Shown: in pieces, positions 12,319 through 40,747 of the stretch
Layout of the letters: each line of letters opens with the position of its first letter
Numbering within the stretch: position 1 is the stretch's first letter
From: a virus
Lineage: Duplodnaviria; Heunggongvirae; Uroviricota; Caudoviricetes
DNA length: 41,961 bases
IMG/VR virus record: IMGVR_UViG_2695420685_000011
Strand: one strand, 5' to 3'
Notes under the pieces: generated by a model
Seen by the model: only the letters and a program-made list of their open reading frames with translations
Database searches by the model: none
What the model was told of the DNA's origin: nothing
Program-made: the position numbers and the translations under genes

Positions 12319-12352
12319 ATGTTAATAGATAAGCACTTACCTATCAATGAAA

Positions 12353-16896: not shown

Positions 16897-17150
16897 GTGT
16901 TTTTCCTTTGTGGTTATTTTGATACAAATTTTAAGAGCAATGAGAAGGTAAACAACTATGCATAACGGTATGTTAGGAATGAAACGAGCGACTTAATATA
17001 CAAAATTTATAAGTAAGTATATACCTATTTATTGTGACGCAACTTTGCTTGTCTGTATGACTAAAAATAAGACAGGATCACTGTAGAACGCTATGAGAGC
17101 TATTTTGAGGAGGCGTAGATTCTATCTACGCCAATATGCGATCTGGAGGG

Positions 17151-26453: not shown

Positions 26454-26596
26454 ATTGATATGCTCAAACTTACTTTCGTGTATCTGATTATATCAAACAA
26501 ATAGAGCTTTACTGTCATGATTGGCGGTAGACAGTATCGGCGCTAAGGTGCAGAATCAGGAGGCACACCGAGCAAAGCAAATTGAGAATAAAACCA

Positions 26597-27580
26597 ATGG
26601 ATAAGGCTAACAAACAAGTCAAAGCAACAAAGTCAGTGCCGACTAAAAAAACAGCCCTCCCCCCAAAAGCTAAGTCTGTAAAGCCAGCGGCAGAAAAGAA
26701 TAAAACTGAAGGTATGACATATCCGAAAACCAGTGCGGATGGACACGCTGGAGAGTACTTGTTTGCCTATTGGATTTCTCGTTATTTCAGATGGCCTTGT
26801 CGATTGCTAGATATTGATATGGGATTGGATGCTCAGGTTGAAATATATGAAAATAATCTTTCGACAGGTTTTTTTATCGGCGTTCAGATAAAAACCACCT
26901 CACGCAAAATGAAGAGAAGGTTAAGCGTACAAATACCTTATAAAAATATAACCTATTGGGGAAGTTGTGATTTTCCTGTGGTAATTGTTTTGATATGCCT
27001 ACACGATGATAATGAATTAGACGAACCTGCTATTTATTGGAAGCATTTAGATAAAAAAACAATTTCTAAAATAAAGGATAAAGCATTAAGAAGTGACTCT
27101 GGATGTGCTCCTGTAACTTTCAATAAGGATGATTATCTGTCTGAATGGGCAGACAAACAAAAGTGGGTCGACATGTGGCTTACAGAAGAAGATAAAGAGA
27201 TAATTGAGCTTGCAAAGCGAGTAAACAAGACGTTGCTAGAGATAGGTGTTCCTCTTGATAAATTCGGAGACGAGTATGACCGCAGCACCTACCTGTGTAG
27301 CCCTGAGCGGGTAGTACCAGACTTGAACTCTATGATGAATGAATATGAAAAAATAAATAACCATATACGTGTAAAGCGTCGATTAGTAGAATTCGATCCT
27401 GTAGTGTCGATTTGTTCACAAAATTATGAAAAGTATCTACCTAAAATCCTTGAATATTTTGAAGATGTGGTCGCACGTAGTGTCGGTTCATACTCGATTG
27501 CAGAACATTTCGAACCATACAGTGATCGTAATCATATTCTGAATCGAATAATTATAGAGAAAGCCCCTAATTCAAGATAG
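26597..27580 (+). CDS. nuclease-fold protein with lysine-rich N-terminal tail (DUF4365-like; unverified)
   Basis: K/P/A-rich tail, then GHAGEYLFAYW..DIDMGLD..VEIY..GVQIKT resembling restriction-endonuclease-like D..E.K signatures; AT-rich; opposite strand to neighbours; terminator downstream. Confidence 0.6.
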   Translation: MDKANKQVKATKSVPTKKTALPPKAKSVKPAAEKNKTEGMTYPKTSADGHAGEYLFAYWISRYFRWPCRLLDIDMGLDAQVEIYENNLSTGFFIGVQIKTTSRKMKRRLSVQIPYKNITYWGSCDFPVVIVLICLHDDNELDEPAIYWKHLDKKTISKIKDKALRSDSGCAPVTFNKDDYLSEWADKQKWVDMWLTEEDKEIIELAKRVNKTLLEIGVPLDKFGDEYDRSTYLCSPERVVPDLNSMMNEYEKINNHIRVKRRLVEFDPVVSICSQNYEKYLPKILEYFEDVVARSVGSYSIAEHFEPYSDRNHILNRIIIEKAPNSR

Positions 27581-27753: not shown

Positions 27754-30700
27754 TCATTTGCTAATAGTCTCCGCTACCTCTGCAAGAATTGCTTCCAGCT
27801 TTTCGCCTTCCTCTGGGCGAAAGTACAAAATATTCGGGTTAAATCCGTAGAAAACAGTCACATCCAGCTCCGGCAGATACTCTTTGCGTCCAACCAGGTC
27901 GGATGGTTTGCTCTTGTTGTTGAAGAGCGATGTCGCCCGGCTGCCACACGTCAGCACATAGGTTGGACGCACCAGATTGATCTCTTCACGCATAAAGTCG
28001 GTGAACTGGCCGATCTCGTCTTTGGTGTAGTCTTTTTCTTTGTCTTTAACCTTCTTGCAAACGCCTGTGACATAGAGATCGCCCATGCGTAAATCTCCAG
28101 CCGTCAATAGCTTGGCCTTAAAATCGTCGTATCCGTTCTCCATAAAGTAACCGGTTCGAGCATCATTGCCGTTCGCATTGTCCAGAATGATCATGATTTT
28201 CGGCTTAATACCAATGCTGGGGCGGATTAGTTCATCACCTAAGCCCATTTCAGCCGCCATCCGTGTCATGAGCACGTTAATCTCAGCCGAACGTTTGGGG
28301 TTCATCTCAAACGGACGTGAGGCTTTAACTGCGTCTATGACAAGGTTTCCCATCAATTCAGCCTGGTCGCGTAGGCGCTCTGGATCAGTTGCTGGCAGAC
28401 TACCTGGCTCGATGGATGCAAACGCCCCTACTTTTTGCAGCGATTCGCGCACTCGACTATTACAGGCACGTTTCTCGACAGCTTCTTCGAATTGCGCCAG
28501 TGACTCGAATTTGCCGCCAACTTTTTCTCGCGCTCTCATGATGGCTTGGCAGCCATTCTCAGAACACCCCTTCACAGCAGAGAAGGGCGCATACAGCACC
28601 TGGCTGCCATCTTCAAGCGTGCGGATCTCGATTCGGTTGGATGACACGTTAACGTCTGGTGGCAATACGCGAATACCATAGGTCAGCGCATCTTTAACCA
28701 GCCCCTGGTGTTTATCTTCGCCAAGAATAGTGAGAGCAGCAGCGAAAAACTCTGCGGGATAATGAGTTTTCAACCACATAGATTGATAACTGATCAAGGA
28801 GTAAGCAACAGAGTGTGATTTGTTGAACTGGTAGGCACCATTTTTTTCGAATGCGGTCCAGATCTCCTTCGCTTTCATCTCTGATAGCCCTGGGTGTGAC
28901 GCTGTCACGCGTACTGCGTTTATAGGTAGTTTTGCGCCGTGTTCAAGCGCCTCTTCGACAGTTTTCAGTGTTCCGTCTTCGCATTTAAAATGTTCCGCAC
29001 GGTGAATGCGCTGTGTAGTGCCATCTTCCAGCTCAACGTCTATCCAGCCAGCTTGAGCCTGAACGATGAACTTCTCACCCATGCTCTTCATTTTCTCCAT
29101 GTCTTTTTTGCCGATCGCTTTACGAACGCCGTCAGCTTCAGCCATTGTGAAGCCCGCAAGCAATCGAGTCGCGTTCATCGTCTGTTCCTGATAAAGAATC
29201 ACGCCATTTGTTTCTGCGGTAAGTTCATCAAGAACGGGGTGTAATGATTCCGGCGTCATAAAGCCTTTGGCGACAGAAACATAATCATCCAACATGCCTG
29301 ACTGAATTGGCCCCGGCCGGAAGAGCGCAGTCGTAGCAACGACCGTTTTAAAGCTCATTGGCTCAATTCCACCACCTAAATCTTTAAGCAGCTTGCGCAT
29401 TGGGCCTGATTCAAGCTGGAAAACACCTTGAGTGTACCCAGCAGCAAAACCATCCAGCACCTTGCGATCTTCAAGAGAAATGGCATCAAGATTGATATCC
29501 TCACCTGTGTTCTCTTTAATGTAGCGTTTTGCACTATCGAGCAAATCGAGAGTCGCCAGGCCAAGTACGTCCAGCTTAATTAGGCCCATAGCCTCGCAGT
29601 AACGCTTGTCAAATGCGATACAACGCGCGTCACCACGTCGTTCAACCGGTGTTCGTTCTGTCAGAGGAACACCTGCTACGATCATCCCTGCCGCATGTCT
29701 ACCATAGCCACGCATAAGGCTTTGTAACTTGCAGGCTGCATTGAATGCATCAGGATATTTTGTCGCGTATTTGTCGAGGCTTACCAGTTGTTCGCGCAGC
29801 TCTTCCAATGGAAGGCTATCATCCTCGACGTTCTTCAGTTCTTTTGATACCGCCATATCTGCGGACTCCACACCATAAATACGAGCGGTGTCACGTAGTG
29901 CAGAGGCCGCGCCCAGGTAGGTGAAGTTCGGAATGCCTGCAACGTAATCTTCGCCGTAGCGTTCATTCAGATACTCGATCACCTCATGGCGACGTGCCTG
30001 GCTGAAGTCCAAGTCCGCATCTGGCAAGTCGAGACGCTCAGGGTTGATGAAACGTTCAAACAGAAGACCGTGACGGATAGGGTCGACGTTGGTTATGCCT
30101 ATGCACCATGCCACCAAAGAGCCAGCGGAGGAACCACGACCAGGCCCGACAGGAATGCCAGTTTCACGGCTGTGATTCATCAGATCGCGTACCATCAGGA
30201 AGTAACCACAAAATCCCAGGCGAGTAAGCGTGTCCATTTCGTACTTAAGTCGCTCAACATAAACCCTGTTCTCAGAAGCCGGTGGTGTGTAGCCAAACTC
30301 TTTTGTGGTAAGACGTTTACGCAGCCCAGCAACGGCCAGTTTCATCAGCGTTGCAGGCTCGTCGTCTGCCATCTTTGGCAGTGCTGGTGGCAATTCATGC
30401 CAGCGCCATGTGCAGGCATCGATAATGGTATCCTGCGTTGTTGAGGCCATTGCAGCTGTTACCGGCACATCCATGCGAACGGAGAAGGCTTTCAGCGCCT
30501 CAAGGAGATGGCGGCGACCATTGACGGCGTTATCTCGCTGGTGGGGGATACGCAGACGATGCGGCTGGTCGATTTTGATGTTGTTCGTAACCATGTGCGC
30601 AATGTCTTTAATGTCTGCATCGTCGATCGATTCGTAATAAGCGGGATAGAACGCTACTGGCTCTATTTTCAGTGCGCTGGCGACTTTCATCGCCCGGACG

Positions 30701-31272
30701 TTAATCTGGTCGTAGAATGGGGTAGGGTGCGGATAAACCACACTATAGAAGTTGTCTTTTCCACCCGCTGTAATCAGTGAGCTTATGATTTTTGCAAAAT
30801 CGTTGCGTTGGAACACGCTACCGATGTCGGCAGTGAGCAGGATGATGTTGCCTTTGGCATATGTAGAAACCAACTGTTCGAGCGAGAGACGCGGTACAAA
30901 GTAGAACTGTTCTCGTGTGTTGGCCGCCGTCATTAGTTCGCAGATGTCTCGATATCCCTGCTCATTTTTAATTAGAGCGGTAAAGGAGTAGTTCCGCCCA
31001 CGCTCTAATGATTCCATACATCCCATAGACTCTTTAGCAAGTTTAGCCCGGTGCTCGTATGTGGGATCATCAACAATGTTTAGTTTCACACCACAAATAA
31101 CCGCCATGTCGTCACCAGCGGCACGTTGTAGTGGAATAACACTCGCAATATTCATGCTATCTGCCGAAATTACAGCGGTGTAGCCAGCTTCTCTGGCAAT
31201 CTTCACCGCGTTTTCTGCTTTTAGAGCCGACTCCCCAAGAGAGAAGTCAGTTCGAACCATCAGAGCCTTCAT
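27754..31272 (-). CDS. dnaE: DNA polymerase III alpha subunit (DnaE-like, with N-terminal PHP domain)
   Basis: 1172 aa; PHP-domain N-terminus and collinear DnaE-like core; AAAGGTAAAAACAC leader. Confidence 0.92.
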   Translation of the reverse strand: MKALMVRTDFSLGESALKAENAVKIAREAGYTAVISADSMNIASVIPLQRAAGDDMAVICGVKLNIVDDPTYEHRAKLAKESMGCMESLERGRNYSFTALIKNEQGYRDICELMTAANTREQFYFVPRLSLEQLVSTYAKGNIILLTADIGSVFQRNDFAKIISSLITAGGKDNFYSVVYPHPTPFYDQINVRAMKVASALKIEPVAFYPAYYESIDDADIKDIAHMVTNNIKIDQPHRLRIPHQRDNAVNGRRHLLEALKAFSVRMDVPVTAAMASTTQDTIIDACTWRWHELPPALPKMADDEPATLMKLAVAGLRKRLTTKEFGYTPPASENRVYVERLKYEMDTLTRLGFCGYFLMVRDLMNHSRETGIPVGPGRGSSAGSLVAWCIGITNVDPIRHGLLFERFINPERLDLPDADLDFSQARRHEVIEYLNERYGEDYVAGIPNFTYLGAASALRDTARIYGVESADMAVSKELKNVEDDSLPLEELREQLVSLDKYATKYPDAFNAACKLQSLMRGYGRHAAGMIVAGVPLTERTPVERRGDARCIAFDKRYCEAMGLIKLDVLGLATLDLLDSAKRYIKENTGEDINLDAISLEDRKVLDGFAAGYTQGVFQLESGPMRKLLKDLGGGIEPMSFKTVVATTALFRPGPIQSGMLDDYVSVAKGFMTPESLHPVLDELTAETNGVILYQEQTMNATRLLAGFTMAEADGVRKAIGKKDMEKMKSMGEKFIVQAQAGWIDVELEDGTTQRIHRAEHFKCEDGTLKTVEEALEHGAKLPINAVRVTASHPGLSEMKAKEIWTAFEKNGAYQFNKSHSVAYSLISYQSMWLKTHYPAEFFAAALTILGEDKHQGLVKDALTYGIRVLPPDVNVSSNRIEIRTLEDGSQVLYAPFSAVKGCSENGCQAIMRAREKVGGKFESLAQFEEAVEKRACNSRVRESLQKVGAFASIEPGSLPATDPERLRDQAELMGNLVIDAVKASRPFEMNPKRSAEINVLMTRMAAEMGLGDELIRPSIGIKPKIMIILDNANGNDARTGYFMENGYDDFKAKLLTAGDLRMGDLYVTGVCKKVKDKEKDYTKDEIGQFTDFMREEINLVRPTYVLTCGSRATSLFNNKSKPSDLVGRKEYLPELDVTVFYGFNPNILYFRPEEGEKLEAILAEVAETISK

Positions 31273-32783: not shown

Positions 32784-34892
32784 TCACTTCAAAATGATAC
32801 GAGATAGTTCAGTAACTACAGATGAACCAAGACTATCAACGCTCGTTACTAGGGCATGGTTTGCGTAAAATCTCTCCGGTGCGTCAGTCATGATGCCAAT
32901 TGCCATCAAATCAATGTCAGTCTGCGTTTCAATTTGCTTCGCAACCGAACGCAAATGAGCGTCAAAACCTCTCCCAACAGCCCACGGCGCGCCATCGCTT
33001 AGAACAAGCATGATCTTCTTGTCCTCCATGCGACCAGAAAATAACGATGCAAGGCTGGCTATGCTTTCACCATCCACGTTATTAAGAAGTGGGAATGTGT
33101 AGCCTACGCACCCCATACGTGAGCGAACTTCGCGAGAATTTGCCTTTTCATTCCAATTTTTGATGATAGGTAGCATTAAAGATTCAAAGCGAGAGAACTC
33201 ATACTTGATTGCCTTAAGCTCTCCTGCTGCCATATGACTACCAAATGTTGTGAAGCCGGTGATAATGTTGGGAACATTTATTCGATCAAGCGCATCGGCG
33301 ATGGTATATGCACTTGCAAGAGCCAGTTTAATCGTTTCGCCGCTCATTGAACCTGATAAATCAATCACTTGTTGAACACAGGCGTTAACGGCCTTAGATT
33401 CTTCTTTTTTACGAAACACGCGATCATCATTCATTGCTAATCTGTAGATACTAGAACCATGAATGCGCCCCCGACGCTGGCCCGGTATAAACTGAACTCT
33501 GTTTCTGCTTGCAATTGCACGCTCCAGGTCTTTTGCCAGCGTCGACGAAACACCTGACGAAAGATGCTTTTCAATATATTTGTCGAAGAGTTGGTTGCCT
33601 TCAGGAACGATGCGATAACGGCTGATTGGATATCCACCTAAATCAATATCGGAGAATGTTTTAATAAGCCGTTTGATATGGGCTTCTGCCTGATCAATCG
33701 AACCGATGAAGTCGTATGAGCGATTGTATGGCCTGTATTCGCTTTTCGAGCTTTCTGTTAACTCGCTTTTAATCGTTTCGGATAGTGCATCTTCTGTCAT
33801 GCCTCCGACTTCATCTTCCATGCTATCAAGCTCCTCTAAAGCCTCTTCCAGACTCATTTTGGACGGAGTGGGAATGTCTGAAGAGCCGTCTTCTGCCGTT
33901 TTTCTTTTTTCGTGATCCGAGGTAGTTGCTTCTGTCGTCGCGCTATTGGAAGTATCAGAATCTAATACCTCTTTATCATTTTTTGTATCATCGAATATTG
34001 TTTCTGATGATTCAGAATTATCTGAATCATCACTATCGTTATCATCATGTATGTACTTACCGTGTGACCCATCATCTATAGATATGTGGTTATCTAGCAT
34101 CTCATGTGTCTTGTGATCTTCATTGTCTTCATTACTTTCTCCAGAGGAATCCGCTTGGTCAGCGTCTGAAGGATCGGGAGTTTTTCCCGGAGCTGACTCC
34201 TTACCTTTGCTTTCACTTTCTGTGTCTTTGAGGATCTTAGCTATGGTCGCAGCCACCTTTAAACAATCCTCGGTGCAAGACATGTTACGCACGGCCACAT
34301 CGATACCATGTTCTTTTAATAATGAAATTGGTTTCTCAATGACAGGCCAGTATTCATCCATGAAATCTACGAACGGTGCTTGGCCATCCCAGGCTCTTAC
34401 AACCGGACAGAGAAAGAAGTTTAGAAAAAGCGCGCGCTGATCTTTGCCACAATAAGTAATAGCCTCTGAAGCCTTTGGTTTAAAGACTTTTTCGATTATC
34501 AGGCGCTGAGTTGCCATCAGATTACGTCTTGTTCCGTTAAAGACCTGCCCCATTTTTCGCTCGATGAACACGTCTTCTAAGGCATTCCATAGTGACCAGG
34601 AAGGGACGTGTCCTTTTTCTCTCATTTTGTTGGACACATGAATATCGGTAAACAAAATGTGAGCAACTTCATGATCTAGAAATCCGCGTACTGCATTCAT
34701 CAATGCCGGTGTTGCGTTATCTGGGATTGATGGGATGTTTACGAGAATTGGCTCTCCATCATCGTTATAGCGTACATAAGCGTCGTCCCCTCGTTCTGCA
34801 ACAGGGATGTTTTTACCTGAAAGGAGAGCGACTACTCGTTTTACACTGTCACGGAAGTCCTGAACCTCTTTGATGGAACGTTTTTTGGACAT
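32784..34892 (-). CDS. cobT: vWA-domain protein, CobT-like, with long acidic linker
   Basis: C-terminal von Willebrand A domain with MIDAS motif DLSGSMSG; central D/E/S-rich low-complexity region. Confidence 0.8.
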   Translation of the reverse strand: MSKKRSIKEVQDFRDSVKRVVALLSGKNIPVAERGDDAYVRYNDDGEPILVNIPSIPDNATPALMNAVRGFLDHEVAHILFTDIHVSNKMREKGHVPSWSLWNALEDVFIERKMGQVFNGTRRNLMATQRLIIEKVFKPKASEAITYCGKDQRALFLNFFLCPVVRAWDGQAPFVDFMDEYWPVIEKPISLLKEHGIDVAVRNMSCTEDCLKVAATIAKILKDTESESKGKESAPGKTPDPSDADQADSSGESNEDNEDHKTHEMLDNHISIDDGSHGKYIHDDNDSDDSDNSESSETIFDDTKNDKEVLDSDTSNSATTEATTSDHEKRKTAEDGSSDIPTPSKMSLEEALEELDSMEDEVGGMTEDALSETIKSELTESSKSEYRPYNRSYDFIGSIDQAEAHIKRLIKTFSDIDLGGYPISRYRIVPEGNQLFDKYIEKHLSSGVSSTLAKDLERAIASRNRVQFIPGQRRGRIHGSSIYRLAMNDDRVFRKKEESKAVNACVQQVIDLSGSMSGETIKLALASAYTIADALDRINVPNIITGFTTFGSHMAAGELKAIKYEFSRFESLMLPIIKNWNEKANSREVRSRMGCVGYTFPLLNNVDGESIASLASLFSGRMEDKKIMLVLSDGAPWAVGRGFDAHLRSVAKQIETQTDIDLMAIGIMTDAPERFYANHALVTSVDSLGSSVVTELSRIILK

Positions 34893-35454: not shown

Positions 35455-35841
35455 ATGTCTGACAACAAGATTGAATTTATAGAAAGTCGCTACGCTGCTT
35501 TTATCGCAGGGTTGATTGAATCCTCACCTATGAGCCAGGCCCAGATAGCCAAAACAATTGGGTATAAAAACGCCAACAACCTTTCTTTAATTAAAAGCGG
35601 CAAAATTCCTTTGCCTATCGATAAGGTTCGTCCGCTGGCGCTGGCACTGGGTATTGAGCCAAGTCGTCTTATGATGATGGTGCTGGAAGAACGCCAACCC
35701 GAACTCGCAGCATTTTTATTCAAAGAAGGCACTGCTCCTCTTAACGAGGACGAAAAACAGGTTCTTGCTGCATATAACGAGCGATTCGGTAAAGAGAAAG
35801 GCGCATCACAAAAGGTTGTTGAGGCCATAAAGTCTCTATGA
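35455..35841 (+). CDS. XRE-family helix-turn-helix DNA-binding protein
   Basis: HTH SQAQIAKTIGYKNANNLSLIKSGK; AAAGG SD; 3' end overlaps the convergent recombinase gene. Confidence 0.7.
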   Translation: MSDNKIEFIESRYAAFIAGLIESSPMSQAQIAKTIGYKNANNLSLIKSGKIPLPIDKVRPLALALGIEPSRLMMMVLEERQPELAAFLFKEGTAPLNEDEKQVLAAYNERFGKEKGASQKVVEAIKSL

Positions 35842-36939
35842 AAAATTTACACGAATAAGCTCTGTCGATAGACGATCTCCCTTGAATTTGTGGTCAATTT
35901 CGTCTAAATCCGGTTGCTCTACGATTGATGCGATGTACGTCGAGAAACTTTCTAAGGCGTCTCGCATCTCGTCCATATAATCGTGCCGGTCGTAGACCCG
36001 ATCTATCCCCTCAAGACTGTGGTTCATGATTTTACGTGATACCTCCTGGCTTATGCCTAATGCTGGGAAGTAACTACGCGCAGTACGACGCAAATCTCGT
36101 GGTGTAAATGGCTCAAGCTCCATCAGTTCTGGTCGTTCCAGGATACGGCGTAATGCCTGGGCTATTGCCACTTTAGACATCGGAAGATCTTTCCCGATTT
36201 TTTTATTCGAAGGCACAAGCCACTGGCTGCCTTTACCATATTCGAATAACTCTTCAATGCATGTGCGCATTAATGTGCTTAAAGGCAGAGAATGCTCACG
36301 GGCTGATTTGTTTCTCTTGCCTTGATTCCAAACCCCACGCTGGAGGTTGAACTCACTTTTTTTAGCCCGCAGTACTTCGTCAGGTCGTCTTGCGGATACA
36401 AGACATAGCCTGGCCGCCCATTTTGTACCAGCACACACATTGAAGTAGTCCCATATATTCCAGAACACCCATACCTCTGCGTCGGTTAGCTTCCGCTCGC
36501 GAGGTGTGGGCTTTGCGCCACCGGCAACTTTGTTAAGTGACATATCGTTTAACGGTGACACGTCGATCATCCCCTGGAAGGCGCACCAGCTGAGGAACTG
36601 CTTCATCAGAGAGAAAACGCGGCGACCCATAACAATTTTGCCATCCAGTATTAGTGGGTTGACCAGTTGGTTCACCATGAACCTATTAATATCACTTACT
36701 TTTACATCGGCAATGTGCGGCAAAACATGTATCAAAATACAATGAACAGCGATCTCTGGCCGACGTCTTGTTATCAGCAGAGATAAGCGAGTGAATAACA
36801 TGAATGCGTCCGAGAATCTCATGTCATTGCTGACCTGGGAGATCATAACGGCCTGCATTTGAGATGCTCTTTCGAGATACTCAATCGCCTCTTTTGAGGT
36901 GTTCTCCGCAGCGCGTGCTCTGTCAAAGCTATTTTTCAT
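35836..36939 (-). CDS. int: tyrosine-type site-specific recombinase (phage integrase family)
   Basis: C-terminal catalytic region DLRRTARS..NHSLEGIDRVYDRHDY (R...H..R...H...Y pattern). Confidence 0.85.
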   Translation of the reverse strand: MKNSFDRARAAENTSKEAIEYLERASQMQAVMISQVSNDMRFSDAFMLFTRLSLLITRRRPEIAVHCILIHVLPHIADVKVSDINRFMVNQLVNPLILDGKIVMGRRVFSLMKQFLSWCAFQGMIDVSPLNDMSLNKVAGGAKPTPRERKLTDAEVWVFWNIWDYFNVCAGTKWAARLCLVSARRPDEVLRAKKSEFNLQRGVWNQGKRNKSAREHSLPLSTLMRTCIEELFEYGKGSQWLVPSNKKIGKDLPMSKVAIAQALRRILERPELMELEPFTPRDLRRTARSYFPALGISQEVSRKIMNHSLEGIDRVYDRHDYMDEMRDALESFSTYIASIVEQPDLDEIDHKFKGDRLSTELIRVNFS

Positions 36940-37034
36940 ATGACAATCACCGAGTTACGCCGATGCACTGTATAAGTAAACAGTATATTAGGCATAGATT
37001 CTTATAGGATCAAGAGTAAAAGTAACTCATTTTC

Positions 37035-37067
37035 AGTAATGATTCCATACATAGTAGGTATGGAATC
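37035..37067. other. lox-like palindromic site (13-bp inverted arms, 7-bp spacer)
   Basis: AATGATTCCATAC-ATAGTAG-GTATGGAATCATT, perfect inverted arms, 96 bp upstream of the recombinase start. Confidence 0.5.
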
Positions 37068-37149
37068 ATTTAGACGTTGTTTTTTGAATTTTAAGGGAAA
37101 CAGGAGTGAGTTTGGTGGGAATAAAAACGGCTCCTGTGAGCCGTTTAAA

Positions 37150-37395
37150 TCAGAGGGTGCTGACGTATGCAGCCAGTTCTGTGTATCCGCCAATCGGTTG
37201 GCCATCGATCAGTACCTGGGGGATAGTCTCTACCGGTTTACCAACAATTTCACTAAGTTTTTCCTTGTCGATACCGGCAGTGGTGATGTCGATGTACTCA
37301 TAATCACCGTAGCCATGTCCCTTTAGTTGCTTCGCCAGCTCGACCGCACGTTTGCAGTATGAGCAGTTATCTCGTCCGTAGATAGTGATCGTCAT
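37150..37395 (-). CDS. glutaredoxin (NrdC/NrdH-like redoxin)
   Basis: MTITIYGRDNCSYCK active-site CxxC and glutaredoxin-like C-terminus; start set to the ATG at 37395 with GAGGT SD. Confidence 0.8.
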   Translation of the reverse strand: MTITIYGRDNCSYCKRAVELAKQLKGHGYGDYEYIDITTAGIDKEKLSEIVGKPVETIPQVLIDGQPIGGYTELAAYVSTL

Positions 37396-37569
37396 TGTTA
37401 CCTCATAGAATTGATATGCAACTTTACTTACAAAGAAGATAGGTATGTGCATACTTATCATTGCAGTCTGCATTATAAAGCTATTAAAGCCTCGATCAAT
37501 CTATTAATTAAGGCATTGTTTGGTTAACATTACCCTAATATTTTATAGTTAGTAGAGTGAAATACATAC

Positions 37570-38832
37570 ATGCCTTTTTTAATTTTCATTATTATACTAC
37601 TGCTCACCGTGATTTTTTGGGATTGGGTTGTTTTAAATGGTCAAATTGTTGGAACATTGGCTACAGCATTTGCTTTTATAGCAACAGCATGGAATGCCTA
37701 CGAAGCGAGAAAAAGTGCAAAAGCAGCTTTTTCAGCCCTTCAATTAACAACAGAATCATTGTTCGAAATGCGAAAGAGTGCATTTAAACAATGGTTTGAT
37801 TCCTTATTAAATCAACATGATGAGCTATGTCTTCTTGCAAAACAAATTATCGATAAACGCAAAGTTAATTTAAACAGCGATGAGTTACATAGACTATATT
37901 ACCCATTGGTAAAACAGCATGAGGTAATACAGTATGTGAAGCATATTATTAATATTTTTGAGTATGTGGATAGTTCATTTTATATTGATGGGGAATGTCT
38001 AAAGGAAAAAAGAGCGTATGTGTCACAATTAATTTTCAAAATCCCACCTCAGATGAAGTTGATCATTGCTATCTTTGGATTAAAAATCGATTATTGTGAA
38101 CATATTAATTCGGGAAAACTGTGTTGTTTATTGAATAAATATGATTTTTTCAATGATGAAATATTTTTTGATGATGCTTATTCAGATATGCCTTATCTGG
38201 ATGCATTCATAAACCTTAGATTCAACAAAATATTCAAATCTCGAATGATAAATTATTTTGATAATATCATTAAAAGTTATTATGTTCCATCGGACGTTAA
38301 AAGGGACTGGATGTTTCGAAACCCAAAGCTCGTGCCGTCGGTTCTTATGAATTATAAAACTCCTTGTTCTCCTATAATTAATGATTACTTTGAGAAGTTG
38401 CCTTTACATGTAAGAAACTACTTTGAGGAACTACTTAAAACCGCGAATGATAGAGTTACTCATTTTGACGTTTACATCCCACGCCTTATTGGTTGTTCAA
38501 TCGTGCAACATTACGAAGATGTGCCTTCCGAAAAAAACAGGTTAAATGACAGGAATGATGTAATAGCTATGGCTGAAGATTACATCGAGAAAAGAAAATA
38601 TAATCAACTGGATTACATACTTGAAGATATATACTTCAAGAGTGACGAAGATATAATCCCTGGCCACCATTTGATTGTGGCATTTGATGACTATGAATTT
38701 AAATTATCACTCATTAAGATAAATGAGAATAAAGATAGCGATAATCTTTTAAATCGAATTTATACTGAATCCAGTAGCATGGTTAAAGAATATAAGCGCG
38801 AAATATTAAAACTGGGCGACTATGTAAAGTAA
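37570..38832 (+). CDS. membrane-anchored hypothetical protein
   Basis: 420 aa; two N-terminal hydrophobic helices; very AT-rich and N/K/Y/F/I-rich; plus strand; terminator directly downstream. Confidence 0.6.
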   Translation: MPFLIFIIILLLTVIFWDWVVLNGQIVGTLATAFAFIATAWNAYEARKSAKAAFSALQLTTESLFEMRKSAFKQWFDSLLNQHDELCLLAKQIIDKRKVNLNSDELHRLYYPLVKQHEVIQYVKHIINIFEYVDSSFYIDGECLKEKRAYVSQLIFKIPPQMKLIIAIFGLKIDYCEHINSGKLCCLLNKYDFFNDEIFFDDAYSDMPYLDAFINLRFNKIFKSRMINYFDNIIKSYYVPSDVKRDWMFRNPKLVPSVLMNYKTPCSPIINDYFEKLPLHVRNYFEELLKTANDRVTHFDVYIPRLIGCSIVQHYEDVPSEKNRLNDRNDVIAMAEDYIEKRKYNQLDYILEDIYFKSDEDIIPGHHLIVAFDDYEFKLSLIKINENKDSDNLLNRIYTESSSMVKEYKREILKLGDYVK

Positions 38833-38844
38833 ATTGCACTGTTC

Positions 38845-38878
38845 AACAAAAAAGGGGCCGAAGCCCCTTTGAATTTTG
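38845..38878 (+). terminator. rho-independent terminator after the 420-aa gene
   Basis: Stem GGGGCC/GGCCCC region (AAAGGGGCCGAAGCCCCTTT) followed by a T-run. Confidence 0.7.
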
Positions 38879-38944
38879 CGCTGAAAAAAGTGTTGCTAGG
38901 ATGTTAGCAAGCTATGGTTAAGAACGTCTGCCGTAATTATCTAT

Positions 38945-39022
38945 CACAGCGTTGAGCGGTCTGGTTTATGTTAGCGGAGTCTTAATCGAGTTGATTAAAA
39001 GGCCAAACCGCTCAACGCTGTG
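38945..39022 (-). other. long hairpin (16-bp perfect stem) at the 3' end of the tRNA cluster
   Basis: CACAGCGTTGAGCGGT at 38945-38960 pairs with ACCGCTCAACGCTGTG at 39007-39022; possible processing or termination structure. Confidence 0.5.
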
Positions 39023-39024
39023 TC

Positions 39025-39111
39025 TGGCGGAGAGTAATGGAATCGAACCATCATCGTTTGCACAATGGGACGGTTTTCAAGACCGCTTGAGCACCATGCT
39101 CCCTACTCTCC
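39025..39111 (-). tRNA. tRNA-Ser (anticodon UGA), long variable arm
   Basis: Manual fold: acceptor GGAGAGT/ACTCTCC, anticodon loop CTTGAAA, T-loop GGTTCGATTCC, CCA end. Confidence 0.8.
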
Positions 39112-39431
39112 AGCTATTGTGATGGTCGGTGCTGAACTCCGACACAGGGTTGTAGCAAGCCCCGCAAAGCGCGCACTACTGTAGTTGCGGCACATCAGCC
39201 TGTGCATTCATCACAATGGTAAGATCACTACCTTTCGACCAGTCATTGTGCACATGAACGACGATTAACCGTAATGATATTATCGTTGTGTTGTGAAGCC
39301 AGATGCTTATCTTCTGGTTGCTTCAAAGAGCTGCACTTCCTCACAACGGTAAGAGCACTGGTCTGACTCTATCGATTTACGGCCTTGTGGGTCAGTATCG
39401 CCGATTCGCCCAATGCTCTTACCTGTTGTGT

Positions 39432-39507
39432 TGGTGCCGGTTAACGGACTTGAACCGCTGGCCATTCGCTTACAAAACGACTGCTCTACCAACTGAGCTA
39501 AACCGGC
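39432..39507 (-). tRNA. tRNA-Thr (anticodon UGU, tentative)
   Basis: Manual fold: acceptor GCCGGTT/AACCGGC, D-arm GCTCAGTTGGTAGAGC, anticodon loop TTTGTAA, T-loop TTCAAGT, CCA end; one mismatch in the anticodon stem. Confidence 0.65.
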
Positions 39508-39511
39508 AATT

Positions 39512-39598
39512 TGGTGGGGAGTGATGGAGTCGAACCACCCGAGTCGCCATGACAGTAGATTTACAGTCTACACCGCTACCTCTACGGACTAACTCCCC
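39512..39598 (-). tRNA. tRNA-Tyr (anticodon GUA), long variable arm
   Basis: Manual fold: acceptor GGGGAGT/ACTCCCC, anticodon stem-loop GTAGA-CTGTAAA-TCTAC, T-loop GGTTCGACTCC, CCA end. Confidence 0.8.
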
Positions 39599-39603
39599 TA
39601 AAT

Positions 39604-39678
39604 TGGCGATGGTGGGTGGATTCGAACCACCGACCAGTTGGTTAACAGCCAACTGCTCTACCGCTGAGCTACACCATC
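39604..39678 (-). tRNA. tRNA-Asn (anticodon GUU)
   Basis: Manual fold: acceptor GATGGTG/CACCATC, anticodon stem-loop GTTGG-CTGTTAA-CCAAC, T-loop GGTTCGAATCC, CCA end. Confidence 0.85.
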
Positions 39679-40456
39679 AATTCAGCACTGCCAGTATTTA
39701 TTACTCAACAGTGCCAATCGCGACGGTTTAGTTTCTGCCAGGAAACGCACCGCTACTTGCACTTTTCGTTAGTGCCAGACGCTTTCGACTTCGCTCAATA
39801 GTAGAAGGCAAAATCTTTAAGTAGATGATGTTTCTGAGGACAGCACCTACTTTGTAATTTATACAATGTGATGTATGGAATCATTTGTTGTGAAAACAGG
39901 CACCAATGGCAACAGTGGTTAAACCTACACAACAATCCCGTCTTCACAACGTTGAGGCCACTACTCCGATTGAATGTTTGCCCAACATGTTACATATCAA
40001 CGCTCGCCGGTATCTCTGTGAATAGAACCTTAGAATTGATAAAAATGTAATGGCCTCAACGTTGTGTGCTGGCTAACCATACCAGCCGGGCTACGTCGCC
40101 GCTTTTTAACCCAGTATAAACGACATAATTGAACAAAATGACGTAACAGGATGGGCGGTCAGTGGCTAAGAATCCGGGAGTCATATGGAGTTGAAAATAT
40201 ACCAACCGCCCATTCTGTTACTTCATCGGAGGGAACATGAATGTTCCCTCCTGCGTTCTGCAATCACACTCGCTCAGTGTGTCCCATTTCGGTAACGAGG
40301 CTGGAAACTGACCTCGCTGGTGTTTGGCTTATTAGGCTACTGCCAGATAGACTTCTTCGTTTGCACTTGTATTTAAGTTCAAACAGTCGCGTCTCAACGA
40401 AAACAAAGTCATCTTATACACAAAAGATAAGTAAGTAAATACTTATCATTGTATTT

Positions 40457-40747
40457 TTATTCGGTTGTGACTTTTTTGATCAAGGCCACTCTACGACTAG
40501 GTGTTCTTGTGATGGTGGCAGTGAATCGTTTCGCCTGGATAGTAATGGTTTCGTTCTCCTTAAGTTGCCCGTAGCGAGTTTCCACCAGGGTGCCAAGACG
40601 CCACAGACCATCATCGATACGTTTATGACTAGCAAATTTAATCAGCAACAGTTTTACGACTAACTGACCTACGTAAAAGGCGAATGCGACTCCGGCCGCT
40701 AAGAAATAGGTGGCCAACCACCATTCCCAAGAAGTTAGCTTGCTCAT
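40457..40747 (-). CDS. membrane-anchored hypothetical protein
   Basis: N-terminal TM helix WWLATYFLAAGVAFAFYVG; AAAGGTGAAAAA leader; start overlaps the upstream small ORF stop. Confidence 0.6.
   Translation of the reverse strand: MSKLTSWEWWLATYFLAAGVAFAFYVGQLVVKLLLIKFASHKRIDDGLWRLGTLVETRYGQLKENETITIQAKRFTATITRTPSRRVALIKKVTTE

Follow-up and report, generated by a model that had tools for sequence, protein, structure and literature searches.

What does a very AT-rich gene, transcribed against its neighbours between a glutaredoxin gene and a tRNA cluster, contribute to the phage-plasmid that carries it? The question is raised by the plus-strand gene at 37570-38832 in a 41,961-nt stretch of Caudoviricetes DNA (IMG/VR record IMGVR_UViG_2695420685_000011), referred to below, over its full length, as the window. 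The window is part of an SSU5-supergroup phage-plasmid of ~110 kb (PLSDB rep_cluster_488). An original prediction, made from the letters of the sequence, had guessed at an abortive-infection or superinfection-exclusion type protein, and the abortive infection (Abi) reading is supported here by remote homology to the Pfam putAbiC domain (PF16872) and by relatives in defence hotspots. On balance we think it probable, with moderate confidence, that the phage-plasmid carries, as a moron, a gene whose product works as a one-protein anti-phage factor, anchored in the membrane and belonging to the AbiC/AbiP (putAbiC) family. The defence function is predicted from sequence and genomic context, and any detailed mechanism is proposed with considerably lower confidence. 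Coordinates of the features discussed are collected in Table 1.

Remote homology to the putAbiC superfamily

The open reading frame (ORF) starts with ATG and encodes a 420-aa product identical to WP_052923433.1, a 'hypothetical protein' of the E. coli plasmid pG749_2 (100% tblastn match). As had been described, it is a plus-strand gene amid minus-strand genes, between grxA and the tRNA cluster, and it is extremely AT-rich. Its guanine-cytosine (GC) content of 0.321 (0.297 at third codon positions, GC3) compares with a window mean of 0.454 (standard deviation (sd) 0.033, 1263-bp windows), ~4 sd under the mean, making the gene the lowest-GC 1.26-kb stretch of the window. I (10.2%), K (8.3%), F (6.7%), Y (6.4%) and N (6.2%) are all high in the product, beside L (10.5%) and D (7.9%). 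The gene is real and under purifying selection, with Nei-Gojobori ratios of nonsynonymous to synonymous substitution (dN/dS, omega) of 0.20-0.32, also across saturated synonymous divergence, and its ORF is intact in at least 95 plasmids.

The sole match in PHROGs is phrog_18168, a family with no functional annotation, which aligns end to end (expect value (E) 2.5e-214). One relative retrieved by tblastn from plasmids is a Pantoea protein annotated 'putative phage abortive infection protein', which scores 45 bits against the PF16872 hidden Markov model (HMM; gathering threshold 22). Three other diverged relatives match the same PF16872 segment below threshold; alleles occupying the same slot as the window gene score 15-20 bits. 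A profile built from the window protein and its closest relatives retrieves PF16872 proteins with E values of 5e-35 to 4e-20 (database of 5.8 billion sequences), and an exhaustive HMM search of 1.84 billion representatives gave 281 family members. Scanning of family representatives found PF16872 in 75 of 102, the PADLOC AbiC model in eight (best 7e-8) and the AbiP model in six, the window protein itself giving no match to the PADLOC AbiC (PDLC02343) or AbiP (PDLC02351) models at E ≤ 10. Alignment in hhalign of the window clade (A4, four sequences, none with a Pfam match) with a PF16872-positive set (A5, five proteins) gave a probability of 99.91% and E 2e-34 over 326 columns (residues 1-340). 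The distant matches align at profile positions ~60-210, past the transmembrane (TM) hairpin, so the signal is not a hydrophobic bias. On the profile retrievals and the hhalign result, homology to the putAbiC superfamily is established, and the window protein is a previously unannotated, highly diverged relative of the AbiC/AbiP family that was missed by curated HMMs. As far as the libraries searched show, the AbiC/AbiP link is new to the phrog_18168 entry.

Three other assignments were rejected. The similarly named Abi_C domain, found with the SadR/AbiJ HEPN RNases, represents a family different from putAbiC (PMC13590631), and the window protein has no Abi_C or HEPN match in Pfam. A holin or lysis protein is disfavoured by the absence of any holin family match in Pfam and PHROGs, by the length of 420 aa with a 370-aa soluble domain, and by the location in a replication-side accessory region. 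P2 Fun(Z) (NP_046777.1) was dismissed as a homologue after hhalign comparison (probability 0.15%, E 0.39).

The two N-terminal TM helices and large soluble domain that were originally proposed are backed by hydropathy and by the helices of an AlphaFold2 (AF2) model. Kyte-Doolittle hydropathy over 19 residues (KD19) rises to 2.83 in TM1 and to 1.73 in the weaker TM2, and is at most 1.32 everywhere beyond residue 60. The AF2 model is all-alpha, with a predicted local distance difference test score (pLDDT) of 80.9 that is mostly above 85 in the C-terminal domain, and contains helices at residues 2-22 and 24-44 with low pLDDT. Of the 140 family representatives with a length of 250 aa or more, 131 have a TM segment at the N-terminus. 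R47, K48 and K51 directly follow TM2, suggesting by the positive-inside rule that the C-terminal domain is cytoplasmic. The best-conserved motif runs from the last part of TM2 through the juxtamembrane helix; T32, A35, A38, W41, A43, E45, A46, S49, A52, A56, L64, E66 and F72 are invariant in a 14-sequence alignment reaching down to 19% identity. Such conservation of the TM2 end and juxtamembrane helix exceeds the needs of a passive anchor.

The helical core retains the family near-invariant residues Y122, Y150, I158, L188, F193 and F194. Among 11 near-invariant family columns (F72, L80, H83, Y122, L130, Y150, R155, I158, L188, F193 and F194), the window protein is identical at nine, conservatively changed at one (L to F at 130) and has lost one (R to I at 155). 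The core is the most constrained part of the protein, with an omega of 0.12-0.23 against 0.37-0.50 for the C-terminal half among close alleles. Compared with the Klebsiella and Enterobacter alleles, residues 201-420 are 20-25% identical and residues 1-200 are 42-46% identical. In RefSeq, the homologues from Klebsiella, Enterobacter and Pantoea ananatis apparently start 12 codons too late (L007 5001-5036, L008 5001-5036 and L006 6001-6036, respectively); an upstream in-frame ATG in each of the three gives 'MPVLLILILGTV', restoring the family MPxL N-terminus and TM1.

The genomic positions of relatives point in the same direction as the homology. Three intermediate relatives (P0012, P0013 and P0014) come from P2-like prophages, where they are flanked on one side by tail-fibre genes (in P0012 and P0013, by the tail-fibre assembly gene) and on the other by the gene for the tail sheath. 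This is the position of fun(Z) in P2, and the P2 Z/fun locus is a recognised defence hotspot (PMC9519451; PMC13586616). P0016 lies in a toxin/defence island with RelA_SpoT, HEPN-RES, SMEK_N and CdiI genes, and other relatives are found on F-like or other plasmids amid insertion sequence (IS) elements, or on Pantoea plasmids beside RES-domain genes. The AbiC-like gene is stand-alone at every locus examined, with no co-oriented partner gene in the window or at the relatives' loci examined.

As a separate observation, the Citrobacter P2-like prophage with putAbiC at Z/fun contains, in addition, a gene for CAP12-PCTIR_TIR (L010 2653-3477, minus strand). It sits between tail gene S and baseplate gene V, an insertion point which we take to be the orf30 position of P2, and is apparently a second defence-type cargo of that prophage.

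The cassette slot and its alleles

The region from 35.4 to 40.2 kb of the window shares 97-99% identity with E. coli plasmids, e.g. pG749_2, and its flanks are 96-99% identical to phage Cyrano. The backbone runs from a helix-turn-helix (HTH) regulator (plus strand) through the integrase and grxA (both minus strand) to the minus-strand tRNA-Ser/Thr/Tyr/Asn cluster, small genes and a DNA ligase, and the AbiC-like gene is oriented against this surrounding minus-strand module. Comparisons by blastn with Cyrano, CMS-2020a and loci of other alleles placed the left junction at 37384-37430, mostly at 37407, and the return of homology at 38844-38849 (~38847). These junctions coincide across alleles, with flanks of 95-99% identity. 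The slot is without an AbiC-like gene in phage Cyrano and CMS-2020a, the occupant in Cyrano being a Phage_gp49_66 gene (PF13876). On backbones that match the window at 99-100% in integrase, grxA and ligase, the alleles present share only 53% (L032), 38% (L039) or 31% (L048) identity with the window gene; a further allele, in L046, shares 32%. At least five allele lineages, with 30-55% pairwise identity, occur at the slot on backbones of 97-100% identity, and integrases across the elements are 82-100% identical. The slot also holds homologues in elements from Klebsiella, Enterobacter, Salmonella and Citrobacter, always on the plus strand, with the tRNA cluster just downstream (in plus coordinates) and grxA or phoH upstream. 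The slot is a discrete allelic cassette, exchanged via recombination in conserved flanks.

Insertion targeted by a tRNA gene or the integrase was considered and rejected, given the shared junctions in conserved flanks and the lack of flanking repeats; direct repeats and att-like sites were looked for on both sides of the cassette, and nothing came up beyond short repeats at chance level. The idea of a landing zone at the tRNAs and the recombinase therefore gives way to allelic cassette exchange through conserved flanks. What survives of the proposed insertion is the variability of the slot, which lacks the gene in two elements; elsewhere, diverged alleles have been swapped through the flanks, with no direct repeats. 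GC is low in all alleles (0.31-0.385), so AT-richness is a family trait and not the mark of a recent arrival.

In a tblastn search of plasmids (PLSDB), the AbiC-like gene was found in 139 records, 119 of them non-mobilizable plasmids, compared with ~790 records containing the backbone integrase (≥80% identity). The window allele is present in 40 of 5426 complete E. coli genomes, each time on a plasmid, and a pattern scan of genome contigs gave two loci only. No match was obtained by tblastn against 50,697 phage records, of which just nine contain the backbone, so this absence is uninformative. Rather than being a universal housekeeping gene, the contrary case that the original prediction had allowed for, the gene is syntenic, yet accessory and hyper-diverged, and has no housekeeping annotation.

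These data bear on a reading in which the protein would be a membrane-anchored accessory factor for the element's own life cycle, e.g. a replication or partition tether or a lysis timer, with no defence role. Such a role would suit the replication-associated surroundings (ligase, primase, DNA polymerase III (Pol III) alpha, grxA and phoH) and the synteny across genera. It is hard to reconcile, however, with the absence of the gene from most backbones, including viable phages such as Cyrano, with transcription opposite to the surrounding module, with alleles that share 30-55% identity while integrases share 82-100%, and with the occurrence of the family outside phage-plasmids, in defence hotspots. 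We consider a purely internal role quite improbable. As a predicted anti-phage locus, the SSU5 slot resembles the P2 Z/fun hotspot, both being lysogenic-conversion slots with alternative single-gene anti-phage cargo (predicted for SSU5); the SSU5 slot holds alleles of one family, whereas P2 Z/fun holds unrelated systems.

Two further observations concern the elements themselves. Phage Cyrano (L001, OV696614) and the E. coli LF82 plasmid NC_011917.1 are both 108,379 bp long, with 100% identical integrases, and are probably one element deposited twice, as phage and as plasmid. Several E. albertii plasmids (L003), at a size of only ~62-64 kb, have the same backbone region (rep_cluster_488) together with an 86% allele of the AbiC-like gene, and may have arisen from the 110-kb phage-plasmid by deletion, as defective derivatives.

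Regulatory sites and neighbouring genes

A candidate sigma-70 promoter, whose -10 element ends 20 nt ahead of the ATG, was obtained in a relaxed scan and is weakly evidenced. The cassette also contains one copy of an 18-bp palindrome, of which the window has five exact copies (561-578, 2774-2791, 17010-17027, 37440-37457 and 40428-40445), compared with 0.00 expected from shuffles, and near-copies at 12326 and 34079. Each of the five exact copies occupies an intergenic space just ahead of a minus-strand gene, and the near-copy at 34079 falls within coding sequence. Read on the minus strand, the consensus is approximately TAGGTAAnnACTTACCTA. The cassette palindrome is retained in all phage-plasmid alleles, with copies in L003, L004, L007 and L008, and the motif is probably an operator or promoter element of the phage-plasmid.

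The presence of this element-wide palindrome in the regulatory region suggests wiring into the element's own circuitry, as might be expected if the protein served allele-specific superinfection exclusion or inter-element competition, acting mainly on related SSU5-type phage-plasmids or other plasmids, with the alleles as exclusion types. Its membrane anchor, and deeply diverged alleles at one slot on near-identical backbones, as for immunity or exclusion loci, would also agree with this. We nevertheless judge it rather unlikely. The homologues on unrelated elements (P2-like prophages, F-like and other plasmids, islands) argue for a target beyond SSU5-type elements, and a protein with a large cytoplasmic domain that is homologous to AbiC/AbiP, whose action follows DNA entry, is unlike those superinfection exclusion (Sie) proteins that are small and block injection.

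The very low GC, typical of xenogeneic DNA, and the weak promoter could alternatively indicate a silenced, horizontally acquired gene without a current role, and the toxin-antitoxin and immunity genes among the neighbouring cargo of relatives could indicate toxin-like or addiction cargo. Both appear very improbable, since the ORF is intact in those 95 or more plasmids with a dN/dS of 0.2-0.3, no antitoxin-like partner is adjacent, and low GC is common to all alleles. These alternatives, together with exclusion and a role in the element's own life cycle, are disfavoured because the family occurs as stand-alone cargo in defence hotspots of unrelated elements and the gene is accessory, hyper-diverged and selectively maintained here.

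The translation-initiation region TAGAGTGA(A/G)(A/T)ACATACATG is near-identical in the window (37546-37572) and in L019 (5977-6003), a 31%-identical allele on an F-like plasmid. That this region is so similar despite 31% identity suggests that the gene takes its 5' leader along when it moves between very different elements.

Downstream, the GC-rich hairpin that had been taken as the gene's own terminator lies outside the cassette, is kept in relatives without an AbiC-like gene and scores on the minus strand as a canonical intrinsic terminator, that of the tRNA operon (GGGGCUUCGGCCCC, then U6). It could possibly act as a bidirectional stop for the plus-strand gene as well, and would then at best be shared. 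Directly 3' of tRNA-Ser, the minus-strand transcript contains a 20-bp stem (38945-39022, 95% complementary), followed by the terminator hairpin. The 196-nt trailer of the tRNA operon folds at -69 kcal/mol (z = -6.7), and the stem may be a processing or stability element of the operon. An Rfam scan of 37000-40600 gave nothing besides the tRNAs.

Elsewhere in the window, a Rep3-type plasmid initiator (17997-19211, plus strand) and the alpha subunit of Pol III (27754-31272, minus strand) are encoded, which fit the replication half of an SSU5-type phage-plasmid. The other AT-rich plus-strand gene (26582-27580, 332 aa, local GC 0.37-0.40) encodes a product matching DUF4365 (PF14280, E 9.6e-16) and the PADLOC N-terminal model of Argonaute-associated restriction endonucleases (REase; PDLC02398, E 1.7e-10), and appears to be a second defence-like moron of the same element; its match to a defence model speaks for the anti-phage reading of the AbiC-like gene as well.

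Table 1. Features of the AbiC-like gene, its cassette and the flanking backbone (window positions).
Feature	Position	Strand	Evidence
AbiC/AbiP-like (putAbiC superfamily) gene	37570..38832	+	ATG start, 420 aa plus stop
Predicted N-terminal TM hairpin: TM1 residues ~3-22, 3-residue loop, Ala-rich TM2 ~26-44	37576..37701	+	hydropathy; AF2; conserved family-wide
Best-conserved motif: TM2 end and juxtamembrane helix, residues 32-56, TAFAFIATAWNAYEARKSAKAAFSA	37663..37737	+	14-sequence alignment
Helical core, apparent equivalent of the Pfam putAbiC domain, residues ~105-190	37882..38139	+	PF16872 segment of homologues; near-invariant columns; omega
C-terminal helical domain, fast-evolving (residues 201-420); candidate for specificity or sensing	38170..38829	+	identity, omega, pLDDT
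Variable allelic cassette (regulatory region and ORF), conserved backbone on either side	37408..38846	.	blastn junctions
Candidate sigma-70 promoter TTGGTT, 18 nt, TATAGT	37520..37549	+	relaxed scan, 8/12 matches; kept in the E. albertii allele
Promoter-like site TTGATC, 16 nt, TATAAT, toward grxA, cassette-supplied	37472..37499	-	10/12 matches
18-bp palindrome TARGTA-N6-TACYTA, cassette copy, 45 nt upstream of the grxA start	37440..37457	.	element-wide motif
GC-rich hairpin AAAGGGGC-TTCG-GCCCCTTT	38851..38870	.	backbone, outside the cassette
Integrase	35836-36939	-	left neighbour
GrxA-family glutaredoxin grxA, left flank, backbone	37150-37395	-	Pfam PF00462; RefSeq annotation of identical plasmid
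tRNA-Ser(TGA), Thr(TGT), Tyr(GTA), Asn(GTT) cluster, right flank, backbone	39025-39678	-	ARAGORN; Rfam

Proposed function and relation to lactococcal AbiC and AbiP

Lactococcal AbiC consists of two TM helices and a soluble helical domain, and partially inhibits production of the major capsid protein, with DNA replication unaffected (PMC13064643). AbiP requires a TM anchor and a sequence-independent RNA/single-stranded DNA (ssDNA)-binding domain, keeps early transcripts from being switched off and reduces those of the middle and late classes; it is non-toxic until triggered, the trigger being a phage major tail protein (PMC13064643). The architecture of L. lactis AbiC (Prf; plasmid pTN20), two TM helices and an all-alpha soluble domain, is the same as that predicted for the window protein. 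The latter differs from AbiC and PF16872 in being beyond the reach of the Pfam and PADLOC HMMs and in lacking the near-invariant core Arg, and it comes from Enterobacteriaceae phage-plasmids, not lactococcal plasmids. L. lactis AbiP, in the AbiC/P group of a 2026 FEMS review, belongs to the same superfamily and combines a membrane anchor with a helical cytoplasmic domain, and its triggering by a structural protein would fit the fast-evolving C-terminal half of the window protein. AbiP differs from the window protein in that it spans the membrane with a single TM helix and is shorter in its soluble part, and its RNA/ssDNA binding and its block of early switch-off were shown experimentally.

We propose that the gene is transcribed from its own promoter, possibly the candidate sigma-70 site, while the element resides as a plasmid prophage, giving a protein whose large C-terminal domain would face the cytoplasm. 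Upon infection by a competing phage, the fast-evolving C-terminal half would recognise a phage component, and phage development would then be blocked by the N-terminal module, which is conserved and comprises the TM hairpin, the juxtamembrane helix and the putAbiC core. The block might be exerted through nucleic-acid (RNA) binding, with the early-to-late switch and the synthesis of late proteins derailed in the way reported for AbiP and AbiC, or through perturbation of the membrane via the Ala-rich TM2. In either case the infection would be aborted, sparing the clonal population and the plasmid.

Several points weigh against an AbiC/AbiP-like defence protein. The window protein has no match in Pfam (E ≤ 1), PADLOC (E ≤ 10) or NCBIfam, and no direct match to the PF16872 HMM itself (gathering score 22 bits) at E ≤ 1; its link to lactococcal AbiC/AbiP is transitive, via the PADLOC and Pfam models, and a large protein search with the 102-sequence profile reached no lactococcal protein within its capped set of candidates. 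The family Arg at column 155, Ile here, is Ser in the 53% allele, and several further polar consensus residues are changed in the window clade, so that the activity could have changed. The standard promoter scan reports no plus-strand promoter upstream of the gene, and AT-rich genes are frequently silenced in enterobacteria. Our literature search gave no paper on putAbiC or PF16872 and no reported phenotype for any enterobacterial putAbiC protein, the published phenotypes being those of lactococcal AbiC and AbiP. AbiC and AbiP themselves, described ~30 years ago, are still without a resolved mechanism (PMC13064643).

A more speculative extension, which we put forward tentatively and think doubtful as a whole, treats the grxA-tRNA slot as a polymorphic locus of the immunity type. 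Here a single ancient scaffold, a membrane effector made up of the invariant TM2/juxtamembrane motif and the putAbiC core, would be fused to rapidly diversifying C-terminal sensors, each allele recognising a different phage structural protein, so that swapping the allele would re-programme which competitors are excluded. The loss of the Arg might then mark a changed effector chemistry, e.g. membrane permeabilisation and not RNA binding.

An Abi-type moron on a phage-plasmid will be unsurprising to specialists. SSU5-group phage-plasmids are clinically common elements, and a DefenseFinder-based survey of 1227 SSU5-group contigs listed AbiH, PrrC, PD-T4-3, PD-T7-5, restriction-modification (RM) and others, with no AbiC (bioRxiv 2025.09.12.675607). 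As the present clade is missed by Pfam, PADLOC and NCBIfam, the defence-gene content of the group is probably under-counted, and the HMM models of the putAbiC family need extension. The grxA-tRNA slot, with its junctions mapped, is a specific hotspot in SSU5-supergroup elements that appears to be of the defence type. A homologue on an E. coli phage-plasmid would provide a genetically tractable host for the chemistry of AbiC/AbiP, and the natural allelic series, with at least five lineages on near-isogenic backbones, may allow specificity to be mapped to the C-terminal domain and effector function to the membrane-proximal motif.

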